Of a stretch of 64,000 nt of DNA, positions 4,141 through 59,749 are shown one piece after another (positions within the stretch are counted from its first letter, which is position 1; each line of letters begins with the position of its first letter). The stretch is taken from positions 79,696 through 143,695 of the forward strand of contig JAHBVE010000003.1 of assembly GCA_019637675.1 (NCBI GenBank). The letters run 5' to 3'. This DNA is from Anaerolineales bacterium. Its GTDB lineage: Bacteria; Chloroflexota; Anaerolineae; Anaerolineales; UBA11579. The notes under the pieces were generated by a model that was not told the origin of the DNA, searched no databases, and saw only the letters and a list, made by a program, of their open reading frames with translations. Made by a program: the position numbers and the translations under genes.

Positions 4141-5148
4141 TTACGCCTGATATCGCTGGCGAATGTTAGGCACCAGGTACTCATCAAAACAGCGCTGCAA
4201 GTCGTACTCCGGCGCCCAGCCCCAGTCAGCCCGCGCTGCGCTGTCATTGATCCCCATCGGCCAGCTATCCACAATGCCCTGGCGCTTCGCATCCGGCGCA
4301 AAGCTGATCTGCGCCTGCGGGAACGCCGCCAGCACCTGCTGTCGAAACTCCTCCGCAGACAAACTGAAACTGTTCACGTTATAGGCCGTGCGGCTCAGCG
4401 CCTGGCGTGGCGTCGCCGCCAGCGTCAGCATCGCCTTGACTCCATCCGGCATCGCCATGAACGCGATTGTGGTATCCGGGCGCACGAAGCAGGCATACGG
4501 CTTGTCCTGCGCCGCGGCATGCAGCATCTCCGGCCCATAGTCACTGGTGCCACCTGTCGGCAGCGTAAACGCGCTGATCAGCCCCGGAAAACGCAACGCC
4601 CGGAAATCCAGCAAAGCCGCCGGCGCATCCCCCAGCTGCTTATACCGGCGTGAGTAGTACGCGCCCAGCAACTCCACCGCCAACTTGTTGGCGCCGTACA
4701 CCGTATCCGGGTGCAGCCACTCATCCTCTTTCACGCGCGGGTGCGCCGCCTTCGTTTCGAGGTCCGGCATGCCGTAGATCGCCTTGGAGCTGGGGAAAAT
4801 GAACTTGACCGCCTGCCCCCGCGCCGCAGACTGGGCCGCAGCCAGCTCTAAAAGCAAAACGCTGGCATCCACGTTCACCTCGTGGGCCAGCGCCGGGGAA
4901 TGCTCCGCTCGCGTGGAGAGCAAAGCCGCCAGATGATAGATAGTGTCAAAGGTGTACTCCGCCCCCAGGCGCTCGATCAGCGCCTTGTCCGTGATGCTGC
5001 CGGTCACATGCGTGGTTTCGCCGGCCAGCTCTTCCGGCATCGCCGCCAGATCCAACGTGACGATGCGGGCATTGCCAGCCAGTTCGCGCACCAGGGCCTG
5101 GCCAATTTCGCCGGCTGCGCCAGTGATTAAGACAACGGGTTTGCTCAT
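4141..5148 (-). CDS. NAD-dependent epimerase/dehydratase family protein (extended SDR, L-threonine 3-dehydrogenase-like)
   Basis: Internal start MSKPVVLITGAAGEIG (GxxGxxG) is preceded by GAAAGAGG. The track ORF extends upstream to a GTG at 5280 through the lexA promoter region, which is unlikely. Confidence 0.75.
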   Translation of the reverse strand: MSKPVVLITGAAGEIGQALVRELAGNARIVTLDLAAMPEELAGETTHVTGSITDKALIERLGAEYTFDTIYHLAALLSTRAEHSPALAHEVNVDASVLLLELAAAQSAARGQAVKFIFPSSKAIYGMPDLETKAAHPRVKEDEWLHPDTVYGANKLAVELLGAYYSRRYKQLGDAPAALLDFRALRFPGLISAFTLPTGGTSDYGPEMLHAAAQDKPYACFVRPDTTIAFMAMPDGVKAMLTLAATPRQALSRTAYNVNSFSLSAEEFRQQVLAAFPQAQISFAPDAKRQGIVDSWPMGINDSAARADWGWAPEYDLQRCFDEYLVPNIRQRYQA

Positions 5149-5246
5149 GGGCCTCTTTCGGGGGCTAAGTGGCAGGCGCCGCTCAGGGCAGATTATAAAA
5201 CAATGCCTCGAGCCGCCCCATTTGCGGCCTTCATTTTCACTTGACG

Positions 5247-5262
5247 CAGAACGCCTGTTCAT
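5247..5262. promoter_or_regulatory. LexA (SOS) operator, GAAC-N4-GTTC type, inside the lexA promoter
   Basis: cAGAACgcctGTTCat has GAAC at 5249-5252 and GTTC at 5257-5260. It lies between a TTGACG (5241-5246) and a TATTCT (5265-5270), about 55 nt upstream of the lexA ATG. Confidence 0.7.
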
Positions 5263-5318
5263 GTTATTCTGGCATAGCACAAATGACCTAAGATCAGGCC
5301 AGGTGCAGGAGCAGGCAT

Positions 5319-6020
5319 ATGATGATGGCTAAAAGACGCAAAGGCTTGAGCGAGCGCCATAAGAAGATCCTCGACTTGCTTGAGCGCTATCAGGACGAGA
5401 ACGGCTACCCGCCCTCCATCCGTGAGATCGGCAAGCAGACCGGCATCTCTTCCACCTCGGTGGTCAACTACTACCTCAACCAGCTGGAAGAAGAAGGCTA
5501 CATCGAGCGCGACCGCAAGATTTCGCGCGGCGTGCGCCTCGTCAAGGGCGTCACCGCCGCCGCCAACGCGGTGCGTGAAACCATCGAAGAGCTCATCAAG
5601 GTGCCCGTGGTTGGCCGCATTGTCGCCGGCTCCCCCATGCCTGTCCCCGGCTCCGATTTCGCCTACTACGATCAGGACAGCGGTGTGGAGATCGCCCGCA
5701 GCCTGCTCGGCCCGGGCGACAAAGAGGAAGACCTCTTCGCCCTCGAAGTCCAGGGTGACTCCATGGTGGATGCCATGGTCAACGATGGCGACATCGTCGT
5801 CATGAAGAAGGCTCAGGACGCCCGCAACGGTGAAATGGTCGCCGTCTGGCTGACCGACCGTGACGAGACCACCCTCAAATACTTCTACAAAGAGAACGGC
5901 GGCATCCGCCTGCAGCCCGCCAACCCCACCATGCAACCCATCTTTGTCGATAACCCCCGCGCCGTCCAGGTGCAGGGCAAGGTGGTCATGGTCATTCGCC
6001 AGATGGGCGCGCCCAACTAA
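5319..6020 (+). CDS. lexA: LexA repressor
   Basis: wHTH region PSIREIGKQTGISSTSVVNYYLNQLEEEGYIER, Ala-Gly cleavage site VAGSP, and the GDSM / VVMKK Ser-Lys dyad. Confidence 0.95.
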   Translation: MMMAKRRKGLSERHKKILDLLERYQDENGYPPSIREIGKQTGISSTSVVNYYLNQLEEEGYIERDRKISRGVRLVKGVTAAANAVRETIEELIKVPVVGRIVAGSPMPVPGSDFAYYDQDSGVEIARSLLGPGDKEEDLFALEVQGDSMVDAMVNDGDIVVMKKAQDARNGEMVAVWLTDRDETTLKYFYKENGGIRLQPANPTMQPIFVDNPRAVQVQGKVVMVIRQMGAPN

Positions 6021-6045: not shown

Positions 6046-6073
6046 AAAAGCCGCTCAATTGAGCGGCTTTTTT
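6046..6073 (+). terminator. Rho-independent terminator after lexA
   Basis: aaaagccgctc-aatt-gagcggctttt followed by a T run. Confidence 0.8.
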
Positions 6074-6169
6074 GTTCAGTCAGGAGCTGACGGCTCGCCA
6101 AGGCGCTGCTCCAAAGACAGGGTGATTCTCATCAGCGCATCTATTCGTCTTGCGCTTAGAATACGGCCC

Positions 6170-7135
6170 ATGCCAATGCCAAGCCAAGAACGCATTTTTG
6201 TCACCCTCCTGCGCGAGATCGCCGCAGAGCAAGGCTACACCCTGACCCCCTTCTCGCAAGATTGGATCTTGCGCTTCGAAAAAGCGGGCCAGGCGCGTCA
6301 TACCTTTGGCTTCAACTTTGAGATCAATTCAACCACTGCTTACATGCTGGCCGGCGACAAGGCCGCCGTTGCCGCCGTGCTGCAACACCAGGCCGTCCCC
6401 CACATTGAACACCGCTTCTTCATCAACCCGAACCGCAGCACCTATGTGCCAGAGACTGGCCACTGGCCCGCCATCCTGGCTTACGCGCAGAAGCAGAACT
6501 ACAACCTGGTCGCCAAGCCCAACGAGGGCACCGGCGGGCTGGGCGTGGTGCGCGTCACCAACCAGGCCCAGCTTGAAAAGGCCGTTCTCAGCATTTTCCA
6601 AAAGGGCCAGTCACTCAGCCTGTCGCCATATTACGACATCCACAACGAATATCGCCTCATCATGCTCGACGGCGAGTGCCAGCTGGCCTACGCCAAACAG
6701 CGCCCGCAGGTCAGCGGAGACGCAACCGCCAGCCTGCGCGTCCTGATCGAGCGCCAGCTGCTGGCTGGCGCTATCACACAGGCCCAGGCCGCCGAAGCGC
6801 TGGAGCAGCACCGCGACCGGCTTGATGAGGTGCTGCCCGCCGGCCAGACCCTCACCATCGGCTGGAAGCACAACCTCGGCGCCGGCTCGGCCCCCCAGCT
6901 GCTCGATACCAACCCCCTGCTGGAGCTGCTGCTGCCGCTCGCCATCGCCGCCCAGCAAGCCATCAACATTCGCTTCGCTTCGATCGACATCGTCGAGATC
7001 GAAGGCAGCCTGCGCGTGCTCGAGGTCAACTCCGGCATCATGATGGAGCATTTCGTCCAGCACCAGCCCCAGCACCGCGACACCGCCAAGGCTATCTACG
7101 CCCGCGCCCTCGAAAAGATGTTCGCCTCGCGCTGA
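6170..7135 (+). CDS. ATP-grasp domain protein (RimK/CphA-N-like ligase)
   Basis: NLVAKPNEGTGGLGV, EYRLIMLDGE, WKHNLGAGS and LEVNSG are ATP-grasp-like segments. I chose the start at MPMPSQ because the track ORF begins inside the lexA terminator. Confidence 0.65.
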   Translation: MPMPSQERIFVTLLREIAAEQGYTLTPFSQDWILRFEKAGQARHTFGFNFEINSTTAYMLAGDKAAVAAVLQHQAVPHIEHRFFINPNRSTYVPETGHWPAILAYAQKQNYNLVAKPNEGTGGLGVVRVTNQAQLEKAVLSIFQKGQSLSLSPYYDIHNEYRLIMLDGECQLAYAKQRPQVSGDATASLRVLIERQLLAGAITQAQAAEALEQHRDRLDEVLPAGQTLTIGWKHNLGAGSAPQLLDTNPLLELLLPLAIAAQQAINIRFASIDIVEIEGSLRVLEVNSGIMMEHFVQHQPQHRDTAKAIYARALEKMFASR

Positions 7136-7147
7136 TAAAATCCTTGC

Positions 7148-7798
7148 GTGCCCGCGCGCGTTGCCATCCCCCGCTCCAAGCGCATCTTTGACCTTGTTCT
7201 GACCCTGCTGGCGCTGCCGCTGCTGCTGCCTCTGGTGCTGCTCATCGGTCTGCTGGTGCGCATATTCCTTGGCCGCCCGGTCCTGTTCCGCCAGCCGCGC
7301 CCGGGCATCGGTGGCCTGCCCTTCATGCTCTACAAGTTCCGCACCATGCAGGACGCCCTGGGGCCAGACGGCCAACCCCTGCCGGATGCCCAGCGCCTCA
7401 CCGGCTTCGGCCGCCTGCTGCGCGCCAGCAGCCTCGACGAGCTGCCCGAGCTCTGGAACGTGCTGCGCGGCGAGATGAGCCTCGTAGGTCCGCGCCCCCT
7501 CCTCATGAAATATCTCGACCGTTACACGCCCCAGCAGTTCCGCCGCCACCTCACCCTGCCCGGCATGACCGGCTGGGCTCAGATCAACGGCCGCAACAAC
7601 GTCTCGTGGGAAGACAAGTTCGCCCTGGATGTCTGGTACGTCGATAACTGGTCGCTGTGGCTCGACATCAAGGTCCTGCTCCTCACCCCGCTCAAAGTCC
7701 TGCGCCGCGAGGGCATCAACCAGCCCGGCAACGCCACCGCCATGGAATTCATGGGCAGCAACCCGCCAGCCCCGGGCGAAAAAGGCCGCCCGTTATAA
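7148..7798 (+). CDS. Small monotopic phosphoglycosyl transferase (bacterial sugar transferase, PglC/WbaP C-domain type)
   Basis: RIFDLVLTLLALPLLLPLVLLIGLLV re-entrant helix, then PVLFRQPRPG, YKFRTM and DELPELWNVLRGEMSLVGPRP. Confidence 0.85.
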   Translation: MPARVAIPRSKRIFDLVLTLLALPLLLPLVLLIGLLVRIFLGRPVLFRQPRPGIGGLPFMLYKFRTMQDALGPDGQPLPDAQRLTGFGRLLRASSLDELPELWNVLRGEMSLVGPRPLLMKYLDRYTPQQFRRHLTLPGMTGWAQINGRNNVSWEDKFALDVWYVDNWSLWLDIKVLLLTPLKVLRREGINQPGNATAMEFMGSNPPAPGEKGRPL

Positions 7799-7806
7799 TC
7801 CGCGCC

Positions 7807-8718
7807 ATGTCAGACGATGCCGCGCTGTACACCCAGCTCGCCACCATCCGCCGTTTTGAAGAAACCGTGCTGGATGCGTTCCCCAAAGGCGCCTTCTACG
7901 GCACCACCCACACCTACATCGGGCAGGAAGCCAATGCCGCCGGCGTCCTCGCTCACCTGCACGATGGCGATCTGGTCTTCAGCAATCACCGCTGCCACGG
8001 CCACTTCCTGGCCTACGGCGGCGATGCCCGCGCCCTCTTCGCCGAGCTGATGGGCAAGGCCACCGGCGTGTGCGGCGGCATCGGCGGCTCGCAGCACTTG
8101 CACTGGAAGAATTTCTACTCCAACGGAGTCCTCGGCAGCACCGCTCCCATCGCGGTCGGCGCTGCGCTTGCGGAGAAACGCAAGGGCAGCCAGGCTGTAA
8201 CCGTGCTCTTCCTCGGCGACGGCGCTATGGGCGAGGGCGTGGTCTACGAAAGCCTCAACATCGCCTCGCTGTGGGGCGCGCCGGTCCTCTTCGTCGTCGA
8301 AAACAATCACATCGCCCAAACCACACCCACTGAGCTGGCCATGGCGGGCAGCCTGGCCGGCCGCTTCGCCGCCTTTAACATCCCCGCCGTCGAGCTTGAC
8401 AGCAGCGACGCCCGCGAAATTTACGCTGCTGCCGGGCAGGAATTTGCCCAATTGCGCAGCACACCCGGCCCGCGTGCCCTGATCCTGCACACCGCCCGCT
8501 TTGGCCCGCACTCCAAGGGCGACGACACGCGCGACCCCGCCTTCATCGAAGAGTTGCGCGCCACGCGTGACCCGCTTACCATCCACGGCGCCCGCCTGGA
8601 AGAGAGCGAGCGCACCGCCATCGAAGCCGAAGTTGACTCCGCCATCGCCGCCGCCTACGCCCAAGCCGAAGCCGACCCGCTGCCAGAGCACGCTGCCTAC
8701 GTGAAGGCCGGCTACTAA
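7807..8718 (+). CDS. TPP-dependent 2-oxoacid dehydrogenase E1 component, alpha subunit
   Basis: TPP motif GDGAMGEGVVYESLNIASLWGAPVLFVVENNHIA (GDG...NN). Start at MSDDAALY; the upstream part of the track ORF overlaps the PglC-like gene. Confidence 0.85.
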   Translation: MSDDAALYTQLATIRRFEETVLDAFPKGAFYGTTHTYIGQEANAAGVLAHLHDGDLVFSNHRCHGHFLAYGGDARALFAELMGKATGVCGGIGGSQHLHWKNFYSNGVLGSTAPIAVGAALAEKRKGSQAVTVLFLGDGAMGEGVVYESLNIASLWGAPVLFVVENNHIAQTTPTELAMAGSLAGRFAAFNIPAVELDSSDAREIYAAAGQEFAQLRSTPGPRALILHTARFGPHSKGDDTRDPAFIEELRATRDPLTIHGARLEESERTAIEAEVDSAIAAAYAQAEADPLPEHAAYVKAGY

Positions 8719-8767: not shown

Positions 8768-9784
8768 ATGACCAGCGTGCTCGAATCGCTCAACCAGGGG
8801 TTGCATGCTGCCTTCGCGCAGGATGCCCGCGTTTACCTCATCGGCGAAGACCTGCTCGATCCGTACGGAGGCGCCTTCAAGGTCAGCCGCAACCTCTCCA
8901 CCCAGTACCCTGACCGCGTCTGGACCAGCCCCGTATCCGAAGCCGCCATTGCCGGCGTGGGCGCCGGCATGGCGTTGCGCGGCCTGCGCCCCGTCGTGGA
9001 GCTGATGTTCGGCGACTTCAGCACCCTTGTCGCCGACCAGCTCATCAACAGCATCACCAAGTTCCCCGCCATGTACAACGGCGCCGCCCAGGTTCCGGTC
9101 GTGATCCGCACGCCCATGGGCGGGCGCCGTGGCTACGGCCCCACCCACAGCCAAACGTTGGAGAAGCTCTATCTCGGCGTGCCAGGCCTGCGCGTCCTCG
9201 CCCCCAACACCCTCAGCGACCCTGGCGATCTGCTGCGCCGCGCCATCCTGGAACAGAACGACCCGGTCCTCTTTGTCGAGAACAAGGTCTTGTATCCCAA
9301 ACAGGTTTTGGATAACGCCGCATTGGCCGATTTCGAGATCCAGGCCAGCACACAAGACTTTGCGCCCACGCACACGCTGCGCCTCAAAGGCGCGCCGCGC
9401 CCGGCGCTCACGCTGACCGCCTACGGCTACATGGCCGAGCTGGCCCGCGAGGCCCTGACCCGCCTGGCCTTCGAGCACGAGATCTTTTGCGAACTGGTCG
9501 TCCCCACCCAGCTGGCGCCGCTGCCGGCTGGCGGCGGGCTGCAGCCCGCCCTGCAGGCCTCGCTGCAGCACAGCGGGCGCCTGCTCACCATCGAGGAAGG
9601 CACCTACTCGCTGGGCTGGGGTGCCGAGCAGCTCGCCCGCGCCGCCCAGCACTTCGGCGGCCGCCTGCAGGCTGCCCGCCGCGTCGCCGCCGCCGAGGCG
9701 CCCATCCCGGCCGCCCGCAACCTGGAAGATGCGGCCCTGCCCACCCTCGAAGACATCATCTCCGCCGCGCGGGAAATGGTATAA
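8768..9784 (+). CDS. 2-oxoacid dehydrogenase E1 component, beta subunit (transketolase-like Pyr and C domains)
   Basis: IGEDLLDPYGGAFKVS, SPVSEAAIAGVGAGMALRG and RTPMGGRRGYGPTHSQ. Confidence 0.85.
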   Translation: MTSVLESLNQGLHAAFAQDARVYLIGEDLLDPYGGAFKVSRNLSTQYPDRVWTSPVSEAAIAGVGAGMALRGLRPVVELMFGDFSTLVADQLINSITKFPAMYNGAAQVPVVIRTPMGGRRGYGPTHSQTLEKLYLGVPGLRVLAPNTLSDPGDLLRRAILEQNDPVLFVENKVLYPKQVLDNAALADFEIQASTQDFAPTHTLRLKGAPRPALTLTAYGYMAELAREALTRLAFEHEIFCELVVPTQLAPLPAGGGLQPALQASLQHSGRLLTIEEGTYSLGWGAEQLARAAQHFGGRLQAARRVAAAEAPIPAARNLEDAALPTLEDIISAAREMV

Positions 9785-9791
9785 AGCCTTG

Positions 9792-10886
9792 ATGGCTGAA
9801 ACCACCGCGCAGGCTGTTCGCGTCCCGCTCATTAATCCCAACGAAACCGAAGCTCGCCTGGTGAGTTTGCCTGTTTCCAATGGCGACAAAATCGCCAAGG
9901 GCGATACCCTCGCCACCCTGGAAACCACCAAGTCGACCTTTGAACTGCTCTCGGATGCGGATGGCTTTGTAGCCGGGCTGCAAGCCAAGCAAGGCGATAT
10001 GCTGCCCGCCGGGCAGGTGTTCCTGTACCTGGCCCCCAGCAAAGAATGGCAAGCCCCTCAAAAACAATCCGAAACTAAATCAGGCGTCCCCGAAGGCCTG
10101 CGCATCACTCAGCCTGCCCTACAACTGGCAGAAAAACGCGGCATCGCCCTGGCAGCGTTGCCCATCGGCCCCATCATCACTGAAGACTACATCGCCAAAC
10201 TTTCGCCCACAGCTGGCGAAGCCTCCTTTACGATCCCTGACGCCGCCAGCCTGCCCAACTCCGTCATCGTCTACGGTGGCGGCGGCCACGGCAAAGCCGT
10301 GATCGATCTGCTGCGCGCCGCTGGCGGCTACACCCTGGCCGGCGTGGTGGATGACAGCCGCCAGCCCGGCGACCGCGTCCTGGATGCTGCCGTCATCGGC
10401 GGCGAAGCCGCGCTGGCAGCCCTGCACGCCGCCGGCTGCACCCGTGCGCTCAACGCCGTCGGCGGCATCGGTGCCATGAGCACCCGCATCGCCGTGTTCG
10501 ATCGCCTGGAAGCCGCCGGCTTCGAGCTGCCCACGCTGATCCACCCCAGCGCCGTTGTGGAGCCCAGCGCCCAGCTCGGCCCCGGCGTGCAGGTCTTCCC
10601 GCACGCCTACATCGGCTCAGATGCACGCATCGGCAAAGGCGTCATCGTCAACACCGGCGCCATCGTCTCGCATGATTGCGCGCTGGAAGATTACGCCAAC
10701 CTGGCCCCGGGCAGCATCCTGGCCGGCAATGTACAGATCGGCCGCGGCACCCTGATCGGCATGGGCGTCACCATCAACCTGAATGTCCACATTGGCAGCA
10801 TGGCCCGCATCGGCAACGGCGCCACCGTCAAAGACGCCGTCCCCGACGGCGGCGTAATCCGCGCCGGCGCAATCTGGCCCAGCTGA
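9792..10886 (+). CDS. Fusion protein: N-terminal lipoyl/biotinyl-carrier domain plus NeuD/PglD/VioB-type hexapeptide sugar N-acyltransferase
   Basis: N-terminus ...GDTLATLETTKSTFEL...GQVFLYL looks like a lipoyl-type hairpin lysine. C-terminus VIVYGGGGHGKAVIDLL..VVDD.., LIHPSAVV and IVSHDCALEDY with hexapeptide repeats. Start ATG at 9792, 7 nt after the E1 beta stop. Confidence 0.8.
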   Translation: MAETTAQAVRVPLINPNETEARLVSLPVSNGDKIAKGDTLATLETTKSTFELLSDADGFVAGLQAKQGDMLPAGQVFLYLAPSKEWQAPQKQSETKSGVPEGLRITQPALQLAEKRGIALAALPIGPIITEDYIAKLSPTAGEASFTIPDAASLPNSVIVYGGGGHGKAVIDLLRAAGGYTLAGVVDDSRQPGDRVLDAAVIGGEAALAALHAAGCTRALNAVGGIGAMSTRIAVFDRLEAAGFELPTLIHPSAVVEPSAQLGPGVQVFPHAYIGSDARIGKGVIVNTGAIVSHDCALEDYANLAPGSILAGNVQIGRGTLIGMGVTINLNVHIGSMARIGNGATVKDAVPDGGVIRAGAIWPS

Positions 10887-11358: not shown

Positions 11359-12267
11359 ATGTCCACCGGCAAACGCAGCTCCAAAAAAGGCACGCGCAGC
11401 CGCGCCTTTGGCTCCTCCAGCCGAGAGAACCACGATGCCAGCGGCTTCTACAACAGCTCGCTATACGCCAAGCTCCCCGCTGAAAGCAACACCCCCTATA
11501 CCCAAACCGAGCTTCCCACCGACGCCCGCAACCGCATCTTCGCCCACAGCAGCGAAGACATGCACGAGCTGCCCGACAACAGCGTGCACCTCATGGTCAC
11601 CTCGCCGCCCTACAACGCCGGCAAGGAATACGACAAGGACCTCGACCTTGAGCAATACTTGGGGATGCTGCGCCGCGTCTGGGCTGAGACCCTGCGCGTG
11701 CTGGTGCCCGGCGGCCGCGCCTGCATCAACGTGGCCAACCTGGGCCGCAAGCCCTACATTCCCCTGCACGCCTTCATCATCCATGACATGCTTTCACTCG
11801 GCTACCTCATGCGCGGCGAGATCATCTGGGATAAGGCCAGCTCAGCCGGCGGCTCCACCGCCTGGGGTTCCTGGCGCAGCGCCAGCAACCCCACCCTGCG
11901 GGATGTGCACGAGTACATCCTCGTCTTCAGCAAAGACCGCTTCGGCCGCCCCGCGCCCAAAGACGCCAAGCGCTTCACCAGCGAACGGGATGACTTTTTG
12001 CAGAACACCAAGAGCGTATGGAGCTTCCCCACCGTCTCTGCCAAAAAGATCGGCCACCCCGCGCCCTTTCCCGAGGAGTTGCCCCGCCGTCTGATCGAGC
12101 TCTATACCTTTCCCGGCGAAGTGGTGCTCGATCCCTTCATGGGCAGCGGCACCAGCGCCATAGCTGCGCTCCGTACGGAGCGCAGCTATGTGGGTTACGA
12201 GATGGACAGGAAGTACGCCAAACTGGCCGAAAAGCGCATTGCCAGCTCCACGACTCAAGCCACTTAG
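11359..12267 (+). CDS. DNA methyltransferase, beta-class (motif IV before motif I), SPPY type, likely N4-cytosine or N6-adenine
   Basis: MVTSPPYNAGKEYD is motif IV; VLDPFMGSGTSAIAA is the FxGxG SAM motif. Confidence 0.85.
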   Translation: MSTGKRSSKKGTRSRAFGSSSRENHDASGFYNSSLYAKLPAESNTPYTQTELPTDARNRIFAHSSEDMHELPDNSVHLMVTSPPYNAGKEYDKDLDLEQYLGMLRRVWAETLRVLVPGGRACINVANLGRKPYIPLHAFIIHDMLSLGYLMRGEIIWDKASSAGGSTAWGSWRSASNPTLRDVHEYILVFSKDRFGRPAPKDAKRFTSERDDFLQNTKSVWSFPTVSAKKIGHPAPFPEELPRRLIELYTFPGEVVLDPFMGSGTSAIAALRTERSYVGYEMDRKYAKLAEKRIASSTTQAT

Positions 12268-12282
12268 CAGTACACTTTCCCC

Positions 12283-12933
12283 ATGGAAACCACCTGGCAA
12301 TCTGTAGACAAGTTCCTTGAAAGTCTGACCGCCCCTGACGACCCCGTGCTGGCCGCCGCCGTGCAGGCCGCCGAGCAAGCCGGCCTGCCCAGCATCCAGG
12401 TCTCGGCTATGCAGGGTCAGCTCCTGCACATCCTCGCCCGCGCCATCGGCGCCAAACGCATCCTCGAAGTCGGCACCCTGGCCGGCTACAGCGGCATCTG
12501 GCTCGCCCGTGCCCTGCCGGCCGATGGCTTGCTGGTCACGCTTGAAGCCGACCCCAAACACGCCGGCGTAGCCCAGGCCAACTTTGCCGCCGCCGGCCTC
12601 GCCGGGCAGGTGGACCTGCGCCAGGGCGCCGCCCTCGACACCCTGCCGACCCTGCTGCCGGAGTTCGCCGCCGGCTTCGATCTCTGTTTCCTCGACGCCG
12701 ACAAGCCCAACCTGCCGGCCTACTTCGAGTGGGCGCGCAAGCTCACCCGCAAAGGCGGCCTCATCATCAGCGACAATGTGGTGCGCAACGGCGAGGTAAT
12801 AGATGGGCAAGACGCCAACAGCACCGGCGCACGCAATCTATTGCAAACGTTGGGGAAGACAGGCAACAGCACGGTCATCCAAACCGTGGGCAGCAAGGGC
12901 TACGACGGTTTCGCGCTCACCATCGTGGAATAG
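12283..12933 (+). CDS. Class I SAM-dependent O-methyltransferase (family 3, caffeoyl-CoA OMT-like)
   Basis: ILEVGTLAGYSGIWLA and FDLCFLDADKPN..Y; typical length of 216 aa. Confidence 0.8.
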   Translation: METTWQSVDKFLESLTAPDDPVLAAAVQAAEQAGLPSIQVSAMQGQLLHILARAIGAKRILEVGTLAGYSGIWLARALPADGLLVTLEADPKHAGVAQANFAAAGLAGQVDLRQGAALDTLPTLLPEFAAGFDLCFLDADKPNLPAYFEWARKLTRKGGLIISDNVVRNGEVIDGQDANSTGARNLLQTLGKTGNSTVIQTVGSKGYDGFALTIVE

Positions 12934-12937
12934 CCTG

Positions 12938-13942
12938 CTAGTGTCCAGCGTCCTGGGTATAGAAATCAACCACCCGCGGCGGTGCCTTGGTTGCGATCAG
13001 GTCAAAGAAATATTGGGCTTCTTCGTATGAGCCATCATGCCCCTGATGTCCAATAGAGGGCTGCACCCGCAAGCCTAGCCAGCCCTTCTTCGCTTCATAT
13101 TGTTGCAGCAGCGGCAGTGTGTCAGTGCCAAACGGGTTTGAGCGGTCATACTGGTTCTGGATCAAGAAAAGTGGCGGCAGGCTTTCGGCCTTGCCCGCCT
13201 CGGCATAAATATCCGGCGCACCGGCTAACTCAATATCCTCTTTGGCCACCAGTTCGGTGTACACGGTCTGCACGCCGCGCTGGCGGTACTCTAAAATCTT
13301 GCTCTTCAAGTCAATGATGGGGGTCGTTACATACACCCCATCGGCAGCATGCTTGATCCCGTGGTACAGGGCTGCAAAGCCGCCCATCGAGGCGCCCATA
13401 CTGAACCACTGGCTGGTCCCGCGCTCACGCATCTTTTCGCGGATCAAGCCCTGGGTCATCGCTTCCACATAGTTCTTGCCATCCGTGCCCCAGAACCAAC
13501 TGCCCAATGACTTCCAGCCATAGTTGTCATACGGCAGCAGAAGATCAAAATGCTTCCAACCATAGCGCAATGGATAAACTTCAAAACCCAAGTATCCATG
13601 AAAGACCACGACCAGCCCCTTGGGTTGCTCCACCGCAGGGAAGAACACATAGCGCAAGCTTCCCCCATCGCCATGCTCATACTTATAAGGGAAGTGACTG
13701 CTCAGGTCCTTATTGGCTTCTTCTTTTTTGAGATGACTCTTGGTGCGCTTGCGGGCAAACTCCCGGATCGCGCCTACATCAGAGGCCAGGATCAGATCTC
13801 GGTCGGCATTGGCCAGCGGGAAACTGCTATGCACAGCAGGACGAAACATGGATGTGATACTTGCCCAGGCTTGGCGAAAGCCCAGAACACGTACCTTGTT
13901 GGCAAAGCGCTTAACCCTGTGCTGCAATGAAAGTTGGCTCAA
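12938..13942 (-). CDS. Alpha/beta hydrolase
   Basis: Nucleophile elbow GASMGG, plus a distal IGHQGHDGS region. GC is visibly lower than the flanks. Confidence 0.7.
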   Translation of the reverse strand: MSQLSLQHRVKRFANKVRVLGFRQAWASITSMFRPAVHSSFPLANADRDLILASDVGAIREFARKRTKSHLKKEEANKDLSSHFPYKYEHGDGGSLRYVFFPAVEQPKGLVVVFHGYLGFEVYPLRYGWKHFDLLLPYDNYGWKSLGSWFWGTDGKNYVEAMTQGLIREKMRERGTSQWFSMGASMGGFAALYHGIKHAADGVYVTTPIIDLKSKILEYRQRGVQTVYTELVAKEDIELAGAPDIYAEAGKAESLPPLFLIQNQYDRSNPFGTDTLPLLQQYEAKKGWLGLRVQPSIGHQGHDGSYEEAQYFFDLIATKAPPRVVDFYTQDAGH

Positions 13943-18510: not shown

Positions 18511-19227
18511 CTATTTTATCTTTGTAAGCAGCTTCTTCTTTTGGTCTTCAAAATCATCGCTTGAAATAGCGCCAGAATCTCGCAACTTTGCCAACTTTTC
18601 TAACATAACAATGATTTCGTCATTTGTAGTGCTAGCGGTTTTACCAAAGCGACCATTGCGTCCCATAGAGATTGCAGTTTGAATAATTTCAAGGTCGCCA
18701 GAAAAGTGCTGAGTAATCTTCCAATCTCCCACAGCAGTCGCAATAAGTAAAACCCTGTCATCAACAGCTCGAATACCAGTGATTTCACTATAGCCAATCC
18801 GCCAAGTCTTATCCCCTTTGTAAGGCTTCCTGGCATCACGTTCACCACTCATTCCGCTCAGAACCTGATATGCAAGTCCGGTCGGTATTGGCGAATAGTT
18901 CTTCGATAAGTCATTAAAAACAGAAATGTAGAGCGCATCAGATGATGCAGCCAAGTAACCAGAGCCGTGAGAGCCATTTAACACCCGAGAAGATCTTCTT
19001 GAATAAGTCCTAAGCTGAGAAACTTCATCCCAGATAAATCCGGCAGGCCAATATTCAACAAACTCTTCACTGTTATCTTCTAAAAGAGGAAGTAGGTCCT
19101 TCTCGTAATGTTCTTGTATCTGTCCATACCAATCTTGCTTGGTACCTTCTGTATTAGAAACTTGCTCTTTAAGAAACTCTTTGTAATGGGCTAATAAATC
19201 GAGCAGCTTCCGCTCAAGATTTTTCAT
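18511..19227 (-). CDS. Hypothetical protein with a C-terminal SHOCT-like domain, in an AT-rich islet
   Basis: The C-terminus IVMLEKLAKLRDSGAISSDDFEDQKKKLLTKI fits SHOCT. A central beta-rich region may be PH-like. It has its own TAGAAT and GGAGGGA signals upstream, and its composition is clearly more AT-rich than the flanks. Confidence 0.7.
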   Translation of the reverse strand: MKNLERKLLDLLAHYKEFLKEQVSNTEGTKQDWYGQIQEHYEKDLLPLLEDNSEEFVEYWPAGFIWDEVSQLRTYSRRSSRVLNGSHGSGYLAASSDALYISVFNDLSKNYSPIPTGLAYQVLSGMSGERDARKPYKGDKTWRIGYSEITGIRAVDDRVLLIATAVGDWKITQHFSGDLEIIQTAISMGRNGRFGKTASTTNDEIIVMLEKLAKLRDSGAISSDDFEDQKKKLLTKIK

Positions 19228-19500
19228 ATAAACTCCCTCCGGCTATTTCTGAAATTCTAACAGTGTCTTCTCACGTCCTTCATAAACAATTACGCCCCAT
19301 GTATCTTGTCCTCATCCTTCTCCTCGTGTCCAGCGCCTTGATTTCGTCGCCACTTCCCAGCCATTCGCAGGATCGTGTGGCACTATCCTGCCACACGCGC
19401 ACGGGCCGCCCGCATGCGCCGCCAGTACAGCCTGCTACCTGCAGAATGCCGGCTGCTGAGCACAAAGGAGAACACAGTAGAAGGAAAAATTTGCCTGGCT

Positions 19501-19532
19501 GGCAAGCCAGCTGAGCGCTCAGCTGGCTTGCC
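19501..19532. repeat. 32-nt perfect palindrome
   Basis: ggcaagccagctgagc|gctcagctggcttgcc, in the non-coding gap between the SHOCT gene and murE. Confidence 0.9.
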
Positions 19533-19713
19533 GGGCTTCAAGCTCCATAGTGTCACCCTGAGCGTAGCGAAGGGCATTTTTCTGGCTTATGGAAACAAGA
19601 GTTTGGCTGAAACAATAGGGGTTTAAAAAATGCTAACAATCTGTCAAGTTGTATCGGAGGCCCCCACGCACCCATCACAACAACTACACGCAGGCGCGGC
19701 CGTCGCCACCCGC

Positions 19714-21249
19714 CTACCGTGCCGTCGGCAGGCTAGGCATCTCCGGCCCCGGCACGCCCAGCAGCTCCGCCAGCGCCGCCCGCGTCGCCACCCGATCGTC
19801 CCACGGGTACTCGGTCTCGCCGAAGCACATCGACTGCTCGTGCCCCTTGCCGAGCACGATCACCACATCGCCCGGCTGCGCCTGCAGCAAGGCGAACGAG
19901 ATCGCTGCCCCGCGGTCAGGCACGCGGAAGAAGCTGCGGCCCTCCACGCCGCCGCGGCTCTCGGCCGCGTGCGCCATCTCGGCCAGAATATCGTCCAGGC
20001 TCTCGGTGCGCGGGTCCTCCGCCGTCAGCACGCTGATGTCCGCCAGCTCGGCCGCGTGTTCCGGCATCATGCGCCGCTTGGCCTTGTCGCGCAACCCGGC
20101 CGATCCGAACACGGTGATCACGCGGCCCTGGGTGAATTGCCGCGCCGACTCGAGCGCCACTTTGAGCGCATTCGGCGTATGCGCAAAATCCACAATGGCC
20201 GTGAAGTCCTGGCCCATCTCGATCCGCTCCATGCGCCCGGGCACGCCTTCCAGCGCGGCGATGCCGGCCTGGGCTGCCTCCACCGGCAGGCCCAGGCCCA
20301 CCACCGTGGCGCCGATCGCCGCCAGCGAGTTGGATACGTTGTACGCGCCGAACATCTTGGTCTCCACCGGGAAGCTGAAGCCCGGCCCGTGCGCCACAAA
20401 GCTCAGCCTGCCGGGCTCGTTGCGAATGTCCGAAGCGCGCAGGTCAGCTTCGGGATGCAGCCCATACGAGATCTGCCTGGCCTTCGTACGCTTGGCCAGC
20501 CCCTCGTACGACTTGTCGTCTCGGTTCAACACCGCCAGACGCTCCACGGCCCGCGTCTTCTCGAACGGCTGGTCCAGCCCTTCGAACAGCAGGGCCTTGG
20601 CGTCAAAGTAGGCTTCATAGGTCCCGTGGTCGTTCAAATGCTCATGGGTGATGTTGGTGACGATGGCAATATCAAACTCACGCGGCCGCGCCCCGCGCTG
20701 CTGCACCAGCCCGATCGAGGTCATTTCCAGGATCGCATGCGTCAGCCCGCTATCCACCATCTGGCGCAAATAGCGCTGCGTGTCGAACGCTTCCGGCGTC
20801 GTAACGTGGAAGCCGGTATCCAGCACTTCTTCGCCAATCTGGGCGTTCACCGTGCTCACCATGCCGGTGTTCAGCCCGGCCGCCCGCAGGATCTGGTACA
20901 GAAAGTTAGACGTAGTGGTCTTGCCGTCCGTGCCGGTGATGCCCAACAGGGTCAGCTCGCGCCCCGGGTAGCCGTAAAAAGCGGCCGCCGCCTCGGCCAG
21001 CGCCGCCCGCGCATCCGGCACCGTGATATGCGGCAGAGGCGATTGCGCATCCTTGCGCTCGCCCACCACTGCTACCGCGCCCCGCGCCGCCACTTCGTCC
21101 AAATACTGATAGCGATCCACGCCGCGCACGATCGCGAAGAACAGGTCGCCGGGTTTCACCAGGCGCGAGTCGAGCGCAAGGCCGGTCACGTCCACATCCG
21201 GCACGGCCGTTTGCAGGTCAAGCGTGCGCAGCAAGTCAGCTAATTTCAT
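19714..21249 (-). CDS. murE: UDP-N-acetylmuramoyl-L-alanyl-D-glutamate--2,6-diaminopimelate ligase
   Basis: ITGTDGKTTT P-loop, Mur ligase middle and C-terminal domains, 511 aa. Confidence 0.9.
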   Translation of the reverse strand: MKLADLLRTLDLQTAVPDVDVTGLALDSRLVKPGDLFFAIVRGVDRYQYLDEVAARGAVAVVGERKDAQSPLPHITVPDARAALAEAAAAFYGYPGRELTLLGITGTDGKTTTSNFLYQILRAAGLNTGMVSTVNAQIGEEVLDTGFHVTTPEAFDTQRYLRQMVDSGLTHAILEMTSIGLVQQRGARPREFDIAIVTNITHEHLNDHGTYEAYFDAKALLFEGLDQPFEKTRAVERLAVLNRDDKSYEGLAKRTKARQISYGLHPEADLRASDIRNEPGRLSFVAHGPGFSFPVETKMFGAYNVSNSLAAIGATVVGLGLPVEAAQAGIAALEGVPGRMERIEMGQDFTAIVDFAHTPNALKVALESARQFTQGRVITVFGSAGLRDKAKRRMMPEHAAELADISVLTAEDPRTESLDDILAEMAHAAESRGGVEGRSFFRVPDRGAAISFALLQAQPGDVVIVLGKGHEQSMCFGETEYPWDDRVATRAALAELLGVPGPEMPSLPTAR

Positions 21250-56690: not shown

Positions 56691-57911
56691 ATGAGTACTG
56701 TTGCCATCCTCCACTATTCTGGGCCGCCGATCGTTGGCGGCGTTGAAAGCGTGATCGATCATCATGCTCGCATGCTGGTTGCCGCGGGCCATTCCGTGCG
56801 CATCATCGCGGGGCGCGGCCAGGCTACCGACCGCCGGATCGCTTTCACCAAGATCCCTCTGCTTGACTCTCGCCATTCACGCGTCCTGGCCGCCAAGCAG
56901 GCCCTGGATTCCGGCCGGGTGCCGGACACTTGGCCCGGTTTGGTCTCTGATATCTCCTCTCGTTTACACAACGCCTTATCGGGCGTAGATGTGGTCATTG
57001 CTCACAACGTGGCCTCGCTCCACAAAAACTTGGCGTTGACCACGGCGCTGTATGAGCTCTCGCTCCAGCCCAGCTTCCCACGCCTGATCCTTTGGAACCA
57101 TGACCTGGCTTGGGGCTCCGACCGCTACGGGCACGAGCTTCACGCCGGCCAGCCCTGGGATCTACTGCGCATACCCTGGCCGGCAGCGACCCAGGTAACC
57201 ATTTCCAGCGCCAGGCAGGTAGAGCTCGCAAACCTGCTTCAGATCCCTGCTGGGCAGATCCTTGTTGTTCCCAATGGTGTTAGCCCACGCCTATTCTTCA
57301 AGTTAGGCCGTCTCTCGATCGAGTTGGTCAACTCACTGGATCTATTGTCTGCCAGCCCGCTGCTCTTAATGCCCGTGCGCCTGACCAGCCGCAAGAATAT
57401 TGAGCTGGCCTTGGAAACATTATCCATATTGCGCAAGCGTCTCCCTGAGGCGCGGCTGGTGATTACAGGCCCATTGGGTCCGCACAACCCAGCCAATCAA
57501 AGCTACTTCGATAAGCTATTGCAGTTGCGCAGCAAACTTGGTTTGGAATCTCATGCGCACTTCCTGGCTGAGCATGTATCTGGTTTCATCCCAGATGAGG
57601 TTATCAGTGATCTCTATCAGCTGGCCGATGCGCTTTTCCTGCCCAGCAAAGATGAAGGGTTTGGCATCCCCGTGCTGGAAGCTGGTCTGGCGGGACTGCC
57701 GGTATTCTGCTCAAGCATCCCGGCCCTGGAAGAGCTGGCGGGCGAGGAAGCCCATTACTTCGCGCCAGATTCCGGGCCGGAGCCCATAGCCGACTTGATA
57801 AGCGACGCGCTGCAGTCTGACCCAACATGGCGCCTGCGGGCACGCGTGCGCAGCCAATACACCTGGCAGCAGATCTACAACCAGTATTTAGCGCCTCTGG
57901 TGGCAGCATGA
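56691..57911 (+). CDS. GT4-family (GT-B) glycosyltransferase
   Basis: VGGVESVI N-terminus and the C-terminal EGFGIPVLEAGLAGLPV (E-x7-E region). Start at MSTVAILH. Confidence 0.8.
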   Translation: MSTVAILHYSGPPIVGGVESVIDHHARMLVAAGHSVRIIAGRGQATDRRIAFTKIPLLDSRHSRVLAAKQALDSGRVPDTWPGLVSDISSRLHNALSGVDVVIAHNVASLHKNLALTTALYELSLQPSFPRLILWNHDLAWGSDRYGHELHAGQPWDLLRIPWPAATQVTISSARQVELANLLQIPAGQILVVPNGVSPRLFFKLGRLSIELVNSLDLLSASPLLLMPVRLTSRKNIELALETLSILRKRLPEARLVITGPLGPHNPANQSYFDKLLQLRSKLGLESHAHFLAEHVSGFIPDEVISDLYQLADALFLPSKDEGFGIPVLEAGLAGLPVFCSSIPALEELAGEEAHYFAPDSGPEPIADLISDALQSDPTWRLRARVRSQYTWQQIYNQYLAPLVAA

Positions 57912-59749
57912 AGCTCAACCGCAAATCTGACCTGCTGCGCCATATCCTTGTACCCGTTATCGACGGCTGCGATATGGAGTTGCCGCGCACGCTGGGCCAC
58001 CTGCTTGCGGGCGAGCAACCGCAACTCTTAGGCATTGTGCCGGTAGACCAAAACGAATCGTTGAGCACCGGCACCGCCCCTGCCCGTCAACTGCGCGCCG
58101 TGATACGTAGCGTGCCGGGCGTACAGCCTCTGCGCACCATGGTTTCGCACCAACCCTGGCAGGAATTGCTGGCAGTGGTGGCGGACGAGGAGCCAGACCT
58201 GCTGATCCTCGAATACCCGACCGCGCTCAAAAAGCTCGGCGTGTCGCTTGACACTCTGCTGCGCGAACTCCCGTGTGACGTAGCCCTCATCCGCGGCCCC
58301 TTACCGCGCAAGCTCAGCAAGATCCTGGTCGCCCTACGCGGTGGCCCCTTTGCCGAACTTGCCCTGCGCTTGGCACTGACGCTTTCCCGCGCCAGTGGCG
58401 CCCGCGTACAGTCCCTGCATGTGCGCTCCACGCGCAAGCCAGACATCCCCTCCGCCAAGCGGGTGGCCGCCCAACGTGATGCTGCGTTCCGCGGCCTGCA
58501 ACGCGTACTGCAAAACCTTCCTGAGGTCGAGCAGCTCCAGCTTCAAAGCAGCGACCCGGCCTTATCCATCATTCGGGCTTCGCGCCGCAGCAGCCTTACC
58601 ATCCTGGGCGTCGCGGCCCACTTCCCCGCCACCGGCCCCAGCTTTGGCCGCACGGTCCAACGCGTACTCAGCGAGAGCGCCGGCAGCGTCATCTTGGTGC
58701 GCTCCAGCCAGCCCCTGCCCAAGGGCGCGCTGACCGAAAGTGCGGGAAGCAAGGCCATCTCCGTACTGGTGGACAAGTGGTTCGCAGAGAACACGTACCA
58801 TGCTGATGAGTTTTCAGACCTGAAGCAGCTGGTAGCACTCAAAGAACAGCAGGGGCTGACCATCAGCCTGGCCATGCCATCTTTGAACGAAGAGGCCACC
58901 GTTGGCAAGGTGATCCGCACGGTCAAGACCGCCCTCATGGAACGCGTCCCGCTGGTCGACGAGATTGTCTTGATTGATTCAGGTTCCACGGATCGCACCC
59001 GCGCCATCGCCGAGAATCTCGGCGTACCCTCCTACGTGCATCAAGACCTGCTGCCCGAACATGGAGCACGCCGCGGCAAAGGGGAGGCGCTGTGGAAGAG
59101 CCTGCATGTCACCCGCGGCGATATCCTGGCCTGGATCGACACCGATATCGTCAACATCCACCCGCGTTTCGTCTACGGGCTGCTTGGCCCGTTGCTGGTC
59201 AATCCCAAATTGCAATTCATCAAGGGCTTCTACCGTCGCCCGCTGCGGGTCGGCCGCCAGCTGACCGCCGGCGGCGGCGGCCGCGTGACCGAGCTCACCG
59301 CCCGCCCCATGCTCAACCTGTTTTATCCGGAGCTCTCGGGGGTCGTGCAGCCGCTCTCTGGCGAATACGGCGGCCGTCGCTCGGCGCTGGAGAAACTGAC
59401 TTTCTACTCAGGTTACGGGGTCGAAACCGGCTTGCTGATCGACATGCTCGAAAAATTCGGCCTCTCCGCCATCGGCCAGACCGATCTGATGGAGCGCATC
59501 CACCACAATCAAAGCCTGGAAGCATTGAGCATGATGTCGTTCGCCATCATCCAGGTGGTCATTCACAAGCTGGAAGCTCGCAAAGGGATCGAACTGATCG
59601 AAGAGGTCAACAAGACCATGAAGCTGATCCACTACACGGACGAGCGCTTCTCGCTCGATGTGCAGGAGATCAACGAGCAGTCCCGCCCGCCGATGATCAC
59701 GCTGCCGGAGTACAAGAAAGCCCAGCCGCGCCCACGCAAACGCCGTTAG
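57908..59749 (+). CDS. gpgS: Tandem USP-like domains fused to glucosyl-3-phosphoglycerate synthase (GT81)
   Basis: The C-terminal ~320 aa carry SLNEEATVG, IDSGSTD, WIDTDI and GGGRVTELTARP as in GpgS. The N-terminal ~290 aa are two USP-like alpha/beta units. ATGA overlap with the GT4 gene. Confidence 0.8.
   Translation: MKLNRKSDLLRHILVPVIDGCDMELPRTLGHLLAGEQPQLLGIVPVDQNESLSTGTAPARQLRAVIRSVPGVQPLRTMVSHQPWQELLAVVADEEPDLLILEYPTALKKLGVSLDTLLRELPCDVALIRGPLPRKLSKILVALRGGPFAELALRLALTLSRASGARVQSLHVRSTRKPDIPSAKRVAAQRDAAFRGLQRVLQNLPEVEQLQLQSSDPALSIIRASRRSSLTILGVAAHFPATGPSFGRTVQRVLSESAGSVILVRSSQPLPKGALTESAGSKAISVLVDKWFAENTYHADEFSDLKQLVALKEQQGLTISLAMPSLNEEATVGKVIRTVKTALMERVPLVDEIVLIDSGSTDRTRAIAENLGVPSYVHQDLLPEHGARRGKGEALWKSLHVTRGDILAWIDTDIVNIHPRFVYGLLGPLLVNPKLQFIKGFYRRPLRVGRQLTAGGGGRVTELTARPMLNLFYPELSGVVQPLSGEYGGRRSALEKLTFYSGYGVETGLLIDMLEKFGLSAIGQTDLMERIHHNQSLEALSMMSFAIIQVVIHKLEARKGIELIEEVNKTMKLIHYTDERFSLDVQEINEQSRPPMITLPEYKKAQPRPRKRR

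Follow-up and report, generated by a model that had tools for sequence, protein, structure and literature searches.

The 64,000-nucleotide stretch of an Anaerolineales genome analysed here (contig JAHBVE010000003.1; hereafter the window, with positions counted from its first letter) carries, on the forward strand, a gene of 364 amino acids (aa) in which a lipoyl domain and a PglD-type sugar acyltransferase stand in one chain. Lipoyl domains of this kind belong to the acyltransferase (E2) subunits of 2-oxoacid dehydrogenase complexes. Four same-strand genes precede the fusion with gaps of 7–49 nt, encoding an ATP-grasp ligase, a phosphoglycosyl transferase and the alpha and beta subunits of a thiamine pyrophosphate (TPP)-dependent E1. 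These genes and the parts of the fusion, including a peripheral-subunit-binding domain (PSBD), are as follows:

6122–7135, + strand: ATP-grasp ligase with weak ATP-grasp and RimK matches; start uncertain (6122 GTG or 6170 ATG)

7148–7798, + strand: small, PglC-size polyprenyl-phosphate phosphoglycosyl transferase (216 aa; Bac_transf, E=2e-60)

7807–8718, + strand: E1alpha, TPP-binding (303 aa; E1_dh, E=2.6e-56)

8768–9784, + strand: E1beta (338 aa; Transket_pyr and Transketolase_C)

9792–10886, + strand: fusion gene (364 aa), uninterrupted translation, with lipoyl, PSBD, PglD_N and left-handed beta-helix acyltransferase parts

9810–10034, + strand: lipoyl domain (aa 7–81; Biotin_lipoyl), presumed lipoyl-lysine K47 at codon 9930–9932

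10092–10202, + strand: PSBD (aa ~101–137; GLRITQPALQLAEKRGIALAALPIGPIITEDYIAKL), by profile match to E2 PSBD structures

10260–10514, + strand: PglD-type N-terminal nucleotide-sugar-binding domain (aa 157–241, GGGGHGK motif; PglD_N)

10527–10883, + strand: left-handed beta-helix acyltransferase domain (Hexapep), catalytic His294 at codon 10671–10673

The fusion starts at an ATG (9792) placed 7 nt past the E1beta stop codon, and its length agrees with that of more than 100 homologues of 360–370 aa. Four parts follow one another in the chain: the lipoyl domain, the PSBD, the PglD-type nucleotide-sugar-binding domain and the left-handed beta-helix. An AlphaFold2 (AF2) model built on 77 homologues (mean predicted local distance difference test score 89.9) displays a lipoyl barrel, a helix-loop-helix and a PerB-like core. 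Residue conservation is given below as counts over an alignment of 241 diverse fusion homologues with 30–100% identity. Databases name these homologues NeuD/PglB/VioB family sugar acetyltransferase, NeuD-family O-acyltransferase, EpsM, UDP-N-acetylbacillosamine N-acetyltransferase or hypothetical protein.

At the N-terminus, Pfam Biotin_lipoyl matches aa 8–78 (E=6.9e-11), and aa 6–95 give sub-threshold NCBIfam matches to the lipoyl regions of several E2 models. Searched alone against solved structures, the N-terminal 86 aa find E2 lipoyl domains best (E. coli E2p, 7b9k, E=9.4e-12), and Foldseek superposes the modelled N-terminus on the human E2 L2 lipoyl domain (3crk_C) with a template-modelling (TM) score of 0.82. 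GCV_H-type (lipoyl) matches appear in 20 of 111 fusion members scanned individually. Lys47, within the motif ETTKS, aligns with the DKA lipoyl-lysine of the E. coli, human and Neisseria E2 lipoyl domains and is positioned in the model at the turn joining strands 39–44 and 49–53. It is conserved in 240/241 homologues, and Glu44 in 238/241. As judged from these alignments and the model, the fusion N-terminus is a lipoyl domain with Lys47 at the modification position.

Among 77 close homologues, the stretch GLRITQPALxLAQxxxLDLxxLPIGPIITE ranks with the best-conserved parts of the protein. Such strong conservation does not fit a flexible linker, which is how a preliminary description of this DNA had read the region ("~60-aa flexible linker"); profile searches instead identify aa ~101–137 as a conserved helix-loop-helix PSBD. 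A segment profile built from 53 phylogenetically diverse members matches the PSBDs of Thermus E2 (2eq9_C, E=4.9e-9) and Pyrobaculum E2 (1w4i, E=1.5e-8), together with a series of further E2 PSBDs. Alignment of the diverse profile to six PSBDs with hhalign gave a probability of 97.8% (E=8e-13); since these six references were compiled by hand, the assignment was weighted on the independent matches in the Protein Data Bank. Only the phylogenetically diverse profile gave decisive detection. A clade-restricted segment profile reached a PSBD structure at E=0.33, with an hhalign probability of 48%; the linkers of four close relatives returned a single sub-threshold E3_binding match against Pfam; and E3_binding detects the domain in 1 of 111 members, missing the other 110. 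The AF2 model places the PSBD helices at aa 107–115 and 131–136. Ser/Thr106 is kept in 240/241 homologues and Ala109 in 239/241, and the loop lacks 3 residues relative to canonical PSBDs. By these profile matches, the fusion has the whole N-terminal apparatus of an E2, lipoyl domain plus PSBD.

The remainder of the chain (aa 157–364) consists of PglD_N and Hexapep, and neither Pfam nor NCBIfam detected in the fusion the chloramphenicol acetyltransferase (CAT)-fold 2-oxoacid_dh core. PglD_N matches aa 158–239 (E=9.9e-11), Hexapep matches the C-terminus (E=7e-15), and NCBIfam TIGR03570 (NeuD/PglB/VioB) scores 183.7 bits over aa 158–356, above its curated cut-off of 160.8. Against solved structures, the core matches PerB (perosamine N-acetyltransferase, 4ea7) at E=1.4e-29, and also the PglB acetyltransferase domain, PglD and VioB; the modelled core superposes on PerB in Foldseek with a TM score of 0.91 and a root-mean-square deviation of 1.3 Å. 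His294 (SHDC) aligns with the residue replaced in the PerB H141N and H141A entries and is conserved in 240/241 homologues, while G162, G165 and H166 of the nucleotide-binding domain are conserved family-wide.

Apart from the linker, the preliminary description holds up well for this protein. It had proposed an N-terminal hybrid barrel of ~75 aa with a modifiable Lys at the hairpin tip, tethered to a C-terminal NeuD/PglD/VioB acyltransferase of ~215 aa that replaces the coenzyme A (CoA)-transferase core of an E2. The barrel does align to lipoyl domains, with Lys47 at the modification position; the acyltransferase is borne out by the TIGR03570 score, the PerB match and His294; the usual core is undetected; and arm and enzyme are joined in one 364-aa chain according to Pfam, NCBIfam and the model. 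It had also suggested predicting the structure of the fusion alone, and the model agrees with a lipoyl barrel plus PerB-like core.

The same description had recognized a TPP-dependent E1 alpha/beta pair in the two preceding genes, in agreement with their E1_dh, Transket_pyr and Transketolase_C matches and their alignments to human pyruvate dehydrogenase (PDH) E1. Among solved structures, E1alpha is nearest to human PDHA1 (E=1.8e-39), with which the GDG...ENN stretch and the PHS His-Ser align; we take the former to be the TPP motif and the PHS His to be the active-site His. For E1beta the best solved relative is human PDHB (E=5e-43), in which the SE and HSQ motifs are identical, presumably representing the cofactor-activating Glu and the active-site His, respectively. 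From their sequences, both subunits appear catalytically intact. They score far below the NCBIfam cut-offs for true PDH E1 (alpha, 229 versus 394 bits), which indicates a divergent E1 subfamily.

The fusion is widespread in Anaerolineae. A word-indexed protein search recovered at least 120 clusters down to 54% identity, all with the fusion architecture; the organism names attached to them, where present, are Anaerolineales, Anaerolineae or Chloroflexi throughout. Among 50%-identity representatives, 485 proteins were found at E<=1e-30, and of the 150 best, more than 100 align along the whole length with 30–55% identity. A scan of one genome per species yielded 321 genomes with a fusion relative; the best 80 are all Anaerolineae/Chloroflexota, including metagenome-assembled genomes (MAGs) of Anaerolinea thermophila and Bellilinea, and the synteny counts for this class were drawn from the loci of these best 80 of the 321. 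Of 78 Anaerolineae species genomes, 77 have E1beta upstream of the fusion; for E1alpha the figure is 64 of 69 loci, and the phosphoglycosyl transferase precedes the E1 genes in 51 of 65. When neighbouring open reading frames (ORFs) were clustered, 39 of 61 more distant Anaerolineae loci (L023–L083) proved to have a DegT aminotransferase gene immediately after the fusion. Synteny of the ATP-grasp gene, the first of the operon, is confined to the window's close clade, in which the operon sits in a conserved housekeeping neighbourhood: panD, a short-chain dehydrogenase/reductase (SDR)-family epimerase/dehydratase gene and lexA, then rpsO and pnp. Two loci depart from the pattern. L082 (5458–9517) has E1beta, no detectable E1alpha and a 640-nt ORF-free gap upstream, and L025 has no E1 within 10 kb upstream of the fusion; both may reflect assembly or pseudogene problems in MAGs.

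Beyond Anaerolineae, named homologues come from Omnitrophota, Eremiobacterota, Gemmatimonadota, Bacteroidota, Bradymonadaceae and the cultured Pseudomonas sp. CCI3.2. Seven distinct loci were examined (Omnitrophota, Eremiobacterota, Bacteroidota, Gemmatimonadota, Pseudomonas and two further contigs), and E1 lies directly upstream of the fusion in all seven. Six have a single fused E1alpha-beta gene of 640–672 aa, whereas the Bacteroidota genes are split. The pairing of E1 and fusion (hereafter the module) recurs in at least five phyla, with E1 encoded either by split or by fused genes. The E1s of the seven loci are 38–46% identical to the window E1 (194–266 bits), against which human PDH E1 scores 139–151 bits; their greater closeness to the window E1 points to a co-inherited E1 subfamily. 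Most loci provide a context of amino-sugar or nonulosonic-acid biosynthesis:

L090, Bacteroidota: dehydratase, DegT, E1alpha, E1beta, fusion, NeuB, then, further on, NeuC-like epimerase, NTP-transferase, GFO oxidoreductase and CMP-transferase

L088, Omnitrophota: nonulosonic-acid cluster with the module and an ordinary 205-aa PglD-like gene

L086/L087, Eremiobacterota: GT4 glycosyltransferase gene, then fused E1 and fusion

L092 and L093: polysaccharide clusters with glycosyltransferases and DegT genes

L089 (8031–11071), Pseudomonas sp. CCI3.2: isolated pair of fused E1 and fusion

L091 (5514–8635), Gemmatimonadota: isolated pair of fused E1 and fusion

By gene content, L090 is a legionaminic-acid-type cluster in which the module takes the place of the usual N-acetyltransferase. 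We would expect a LegH-type N-acetyltransferase at this place, and no other beta-helix gene was found in the examined stretch. In L088 the module stands beside an ordinary PglD-like enzyme, implying a non-redundant role. Methyltransferase genes adjoin the module in unrelated phyla (the window, L088, L092 and L093). A D-2-hydroxyacid dehydrogenase gene is also present in L092, and an AP_endonuc_2 gene in L088. In the polysaccharide cluster of L092, two DegT genes are followed by a second transketolase-like pair, this one split (268 and 306 aa; 18674–20397), which may serve a separate TPP-dependent sugar-modifying step. The isolated pairs of L089 and L091 adjoin toxin/antitoxin-type genes (ToxA_N, VapB, ParE); a phage-defence role was considered for them, and PADLOC returned no matches.

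E1alpha, E1beta and the fusion would most likely constitute a miniature 2-oxoacid-dehydrogenase-type machine whose product is an N-acylated nucleotide sugar rather than acyl-CoA. We favour, with moderate confidence, a mechanism in which the sugar acyltransferase receives from the lipoyl arm an acyl group generated by E1. E1 would use TPP to decarboxylate a small 2-oxoacid and would reductively acylate the lipoyl group on Lys47, while the PSBD would hold E1, and probably also the cell's general dihydrolipoyl dehydrogenase (E3), on the trimeric beta-helix core. The acyl-dihydrolipoyl arm would then enter the inter-subunit cleft normally taken by the pantetheine arm of acyl-CoA. There, His294 would activate the C4 amine of a UDP- or GDP-4-amino-4,6-dideoxyhexose, itself made by a DegT aminotransferase, to give the N-acyl sugar, and an E3 encoded elsewhere would re-oxidise the dihydrolipoyl arm. 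In the window, the adjacent small phosphoglycosyl transferase could start a lipid-linked glycan with this N-acyl sugar. Acetyl from pyruvate is the default acyl group, because the closest solved E1 relatives are pyruvate E1s; a hydroxylated acyl such as glycolyl would be the alternative. Circumstantial hints of an acyl group that is hydroxylated and later O-methylated come from the adjacent methyltransferases, the 2-hydroxyacid dehydrogenase of L092 and the AP_endonuc_2 gene of L088.

LpxA and LpxD are beta-helix acyltransferases that use carrier-protein-tethered thioesters, namely acyl-acyl carrier protein (acyl-ACP), and are an established precedent for the use of a protein-tethered thioester by such enzymes. 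Like the fusion core, they are left-handed beta-helix trimers, accepting an acyl thioester from the prosthetic arm of a protein, and they are among its weaker structural and sequence matches. They differ in relying on a separate phosphopantetheine ACP and long acyl chains, whereas here the carrier is fused, the arm is a lipoyl-lysine and loading would proceed by oxidative decarboxylation.

Several observations weigh against the favoured mechanism. The core is ~50% identical to stand-alone PglD-like proteins, and comparison of fused members with 13 stand-alone relatives disclosed no clear loss of C-terminal basic residues. Residues of this kind may bind the CoA phosphates in related enzymes, so the beta-helix domain may still bind acyl-CoA. 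No E3 or lipoate ligase was found with Pfam among ~30 window ORFs, as the preliminary description had stated for the window, nor among the neighbouring genes of the related loci examined. A DegT aminotransferase gave no tblastn match at E<=1 in the 64-kb window, and none of the 20 loci from the window's clade has the gene behind the fusion, a place held there by methyltransferase genes; the aminotransferase of this clade must lie elsewhere in the genome. No sugar-biosynthesis genes occur near the two-gene module in L089 and L091. Finally, if the acyl group is plain acetyl, the gain over acetyl-CoA is not evident.

The similarity of the core to CoA-dependent enzymes (PerB, E=1.4e-29 and TM 0.91), its ~50% identity to stand-alone PglD-like proteins and the basic residues at 348 and 357, kept in many members, would also be expected if the E1-loaded arm passed its acyl group to CoA bound at the beta-helix site, and from there to the sugar. 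The module would then be a private, channelled generator of acyl-CoA. We consider such a relay unlikely, though the most serious of the alternatives. We know of no beta-helix acyltransferase that carries out thiol-to-thiol acyl transfer, and the relay adds a step without obvious benefit. The strictly conserved nucleotide-sugar domain and catalytic His make the sugar the end acceptor in either case.

A further alternative regards the barrel as decorative or as a docking element, with its modification absent or irrelevant; the protein would be an ordinary acetyl-CoA-dependent PglD-type enzyme and the E1 genes would act separately. A model for a separate E1 role exists in avilamycin biosynthesis, where the E1-like AviB1/AviB2 reportedly have been proposed to add a two-carbon branch to a keto-sugar. 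Database labels would agree, naming the fusion only as a NeuD/PglB/VioB acetyltransferase, as would the failure to find lipoylation genes nearby; the transketolase-like pair beside DegT in L092 shows that sugar clusters can contain TPP enzymes for unrelated purposes. We nevertheless judge this account improbable. Lys47 is kept in 240/241 homologues down to 30% identity, together with its flanking Glu, and the adjacency of E1 persists across phyla and through gene fusion. A PSBD has no known role other than docking E1 or E3, and the L090 pathway has no other acyltransferase in view. That the barrel is instead biotinylated and acts in carboxyl transfer is very improbable: Pfam Biotin_lipoyl spans both cofactors and weak matches to biotin carriers exist (1z6h, E=3e-6; NF004547), but the best matches are E2 lipoyl domains (7b9k, about E=9e-12), GCV_H-type (lipoyl) matches occur in 20/111 members, the motif is ETTKS rather than the Met-Lys-Met (MKM) of biotin carriers, and the partners are E1 subunits and a PSBD, with no biotin carboxylase or carboxyltransferase in any locus examined.

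The favoured reading, in which the lipoyl arm serves the sugar acyltransferase directly, can be set against known systems. A classical E2, such as that of pyruvate dehydrogenase, shares the N-terminal lipoyl domain with Lys at the hairpin tip followed by a PSBD, and is likewise encoded directly after heterotetramer-type E1alpha and E1beta genes. Both core types, that of E2 and the beta-helix, are built on a trimer. The fusion differs in having, in place of the CAT-fold core, a PglD-type beta-helix with a nucleotide-sugar domain, and in having no E3 gene in its operon. Such a core should pass the acyl group finally to an amino sugar instead of CoA. The PglD, PerB, PglB-domain, VioB and LegH enzymes (TIGR03570) match the C-terminal 210 aa of the fusion over their full length and share its catalytic His and GGGGHxK motif. 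Those enzymes, however, obtain acetyl from free acetyl-CoA and are either stand-alone proteins of ~200 aa or fusions with a phosphoglycosyl transferase; the present protein adds a lipoyl domain and PSBD to the chain and has a private E1 encoded next to it.

The nearest functional precedent is QncN/QncL/QncM and SclQ1–4. In these systems an E1-like thiamine diphosphate (ThDP) enzyme and a lipoyl-domain acyltransferase deliver a glycolicacyl unit to an ACP for non-ribosomal peptides, so that, as proposed here, the acyl group is diverted from CoA to a biosynthetic acceptor (PMC6335953). The Scl acyltransferase has been described as homologous to the QncL acyltransferase catalytic domain (PMC6335953). 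SclQ2 and SclQ3 have 305 and 338 aa, compared with 303 and 338 aa for the window E1alpha and E1beta. The systems differ in the acceptor, which is an ACP there and presumably a sugar amine here, and in the beta-helix core of the fusion; we take the QncL acyltransferase domain to be of classical E2 type. No ACP gene was found beside the operon in the window or in the loci of its homologues.

AcoC, the E2 of acetoin dehydrogenase, is also a lipoyl-domain protein that works with E1alpha/beta, and its model NF011457 matches the window lipoyl domain. Its catalytic part has an alpha/beta-hydrolase fold, not CAT, and would be a precedent for replacement of the core; an alpha/beta-hydrolase with a PSBD-like segment (7qjm_A) was among the PSBD profile matches. 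AcoC is named as the dihydrolipoyllysine-residue acetyltransferase subunit of a catabolic complex and still delivers acetyl to CoA. The fusion, by contrast, has another replacement fold and lies in glycan-biosynthesis contexts. A beta-helix core or sugar acceptor is present in neither Qnc/Scl nor AcoC.

The preliminary description knew of no characterised example of this architecture. A full-text literature search returned no paper tying lipoyl domains or E1 components to PglD/NeuD-type enzymes, bacillosamine or nonulosonic acids, and no description of the architecture. It is real, widely conserved and apparently uncharacterised. We regard it as rather likely, from domain content and gene neighbourhood, that it represents a swinging-arm system of the 2-oxoacid dehydrogenase kind in which both catalytic core and acceptor are new. 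If so, swinging-arm logic would extend from central metabolism to the tailoring of cell-surface glycans, with the lipoyl arm as the immediate acyl donor. The module is also a candidate source of the unusual N-acyl groups on bacillosamine-type sugars and on legionaminic and pseudaminic acids. A study of Tannerella described the genetic basis of the N-glyceroyl, and possibly N-glycolyl, groups on its nonulosonic acids as not known and a "major challenge" (PMC5378307).

A broader proposal, which we put forward tentatively as possible rather than expected, is that the module serves generally to attach N-acyl groups other than acetyl to bacterial amino sugars and nonulosonic acids, independently of CoA. 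Glycolyl- or glyceroyl-type acyls would then derive from hydroxypyruvate-like 2-oxoacids or ketose phosphates and would often be O-methylated afterwards. Were this so, glycan biosynthesis would have its first example of a lipoyl swinging arm as the direct acyl donor, and orphan N-acyl decorations, among them those of Tannerella nonulosonic acids, would gain the genetic basis that they lack. In Anaerolineae, an abundant but poorly understood group, the module probably builds a core envelope glycan, because it is conserved there within a housekeeping neighbourhood. The resemblance of its E1 genes to "pyruvate dehydrogenase E1" could lead them to be misread as an aerobic-type PDH complex in reconstructions of anaerobic Chloroflexota. 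The two-gene version in a cultured Pseudomonas strain makes experiments feasible.

The genes flanking the operon in the window are:

4141–5280, − strand: SDR epimerase/dehydratase-family gene, conserved across the window's clade at a place shortly before the operon

5319–6020, + strand: lexA, conserved at the same place throughout the clade

11359–12267 and 12283–12933: methyltransferase genes beside the fusion operon; the types across the window, L088, L092 and L093 are N6_N4_Mtase, Methyltransf_3, Methyltransf_23 and TylF

The SDR gene is a candidate for the sugar dehydratase or epimerase still missing from the pathway. It is unusual for a LexA repressor gene to adjoin a glycan operon. A perfect palindrome with an 11-bp stem (AAAAGCCGCTCAATTGAGCGGCTTTT, 6046–6071) separates lexA from the ATP-grasp gene; it is probably a bidirectional terminator, and its position places the ATP-grasp start at ~6122–6170 rather than at the TTG at 6059. 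The scan for promoters and terminators gave nothing else above chance. Downstream of the methyltransferase genes, a 334-aa ORF (12938–13942, − strand) shows weak likeness to XcbB/CpsF capsule-biosynthesis proteins and to Hydrolase_4, and occupies this position in the window and L006/L007 only. Farther along, a 640-aa ORF (57827–59749, + strand) carries both a universal stress protein domain and a domain of family-2 glycosyltransferases.

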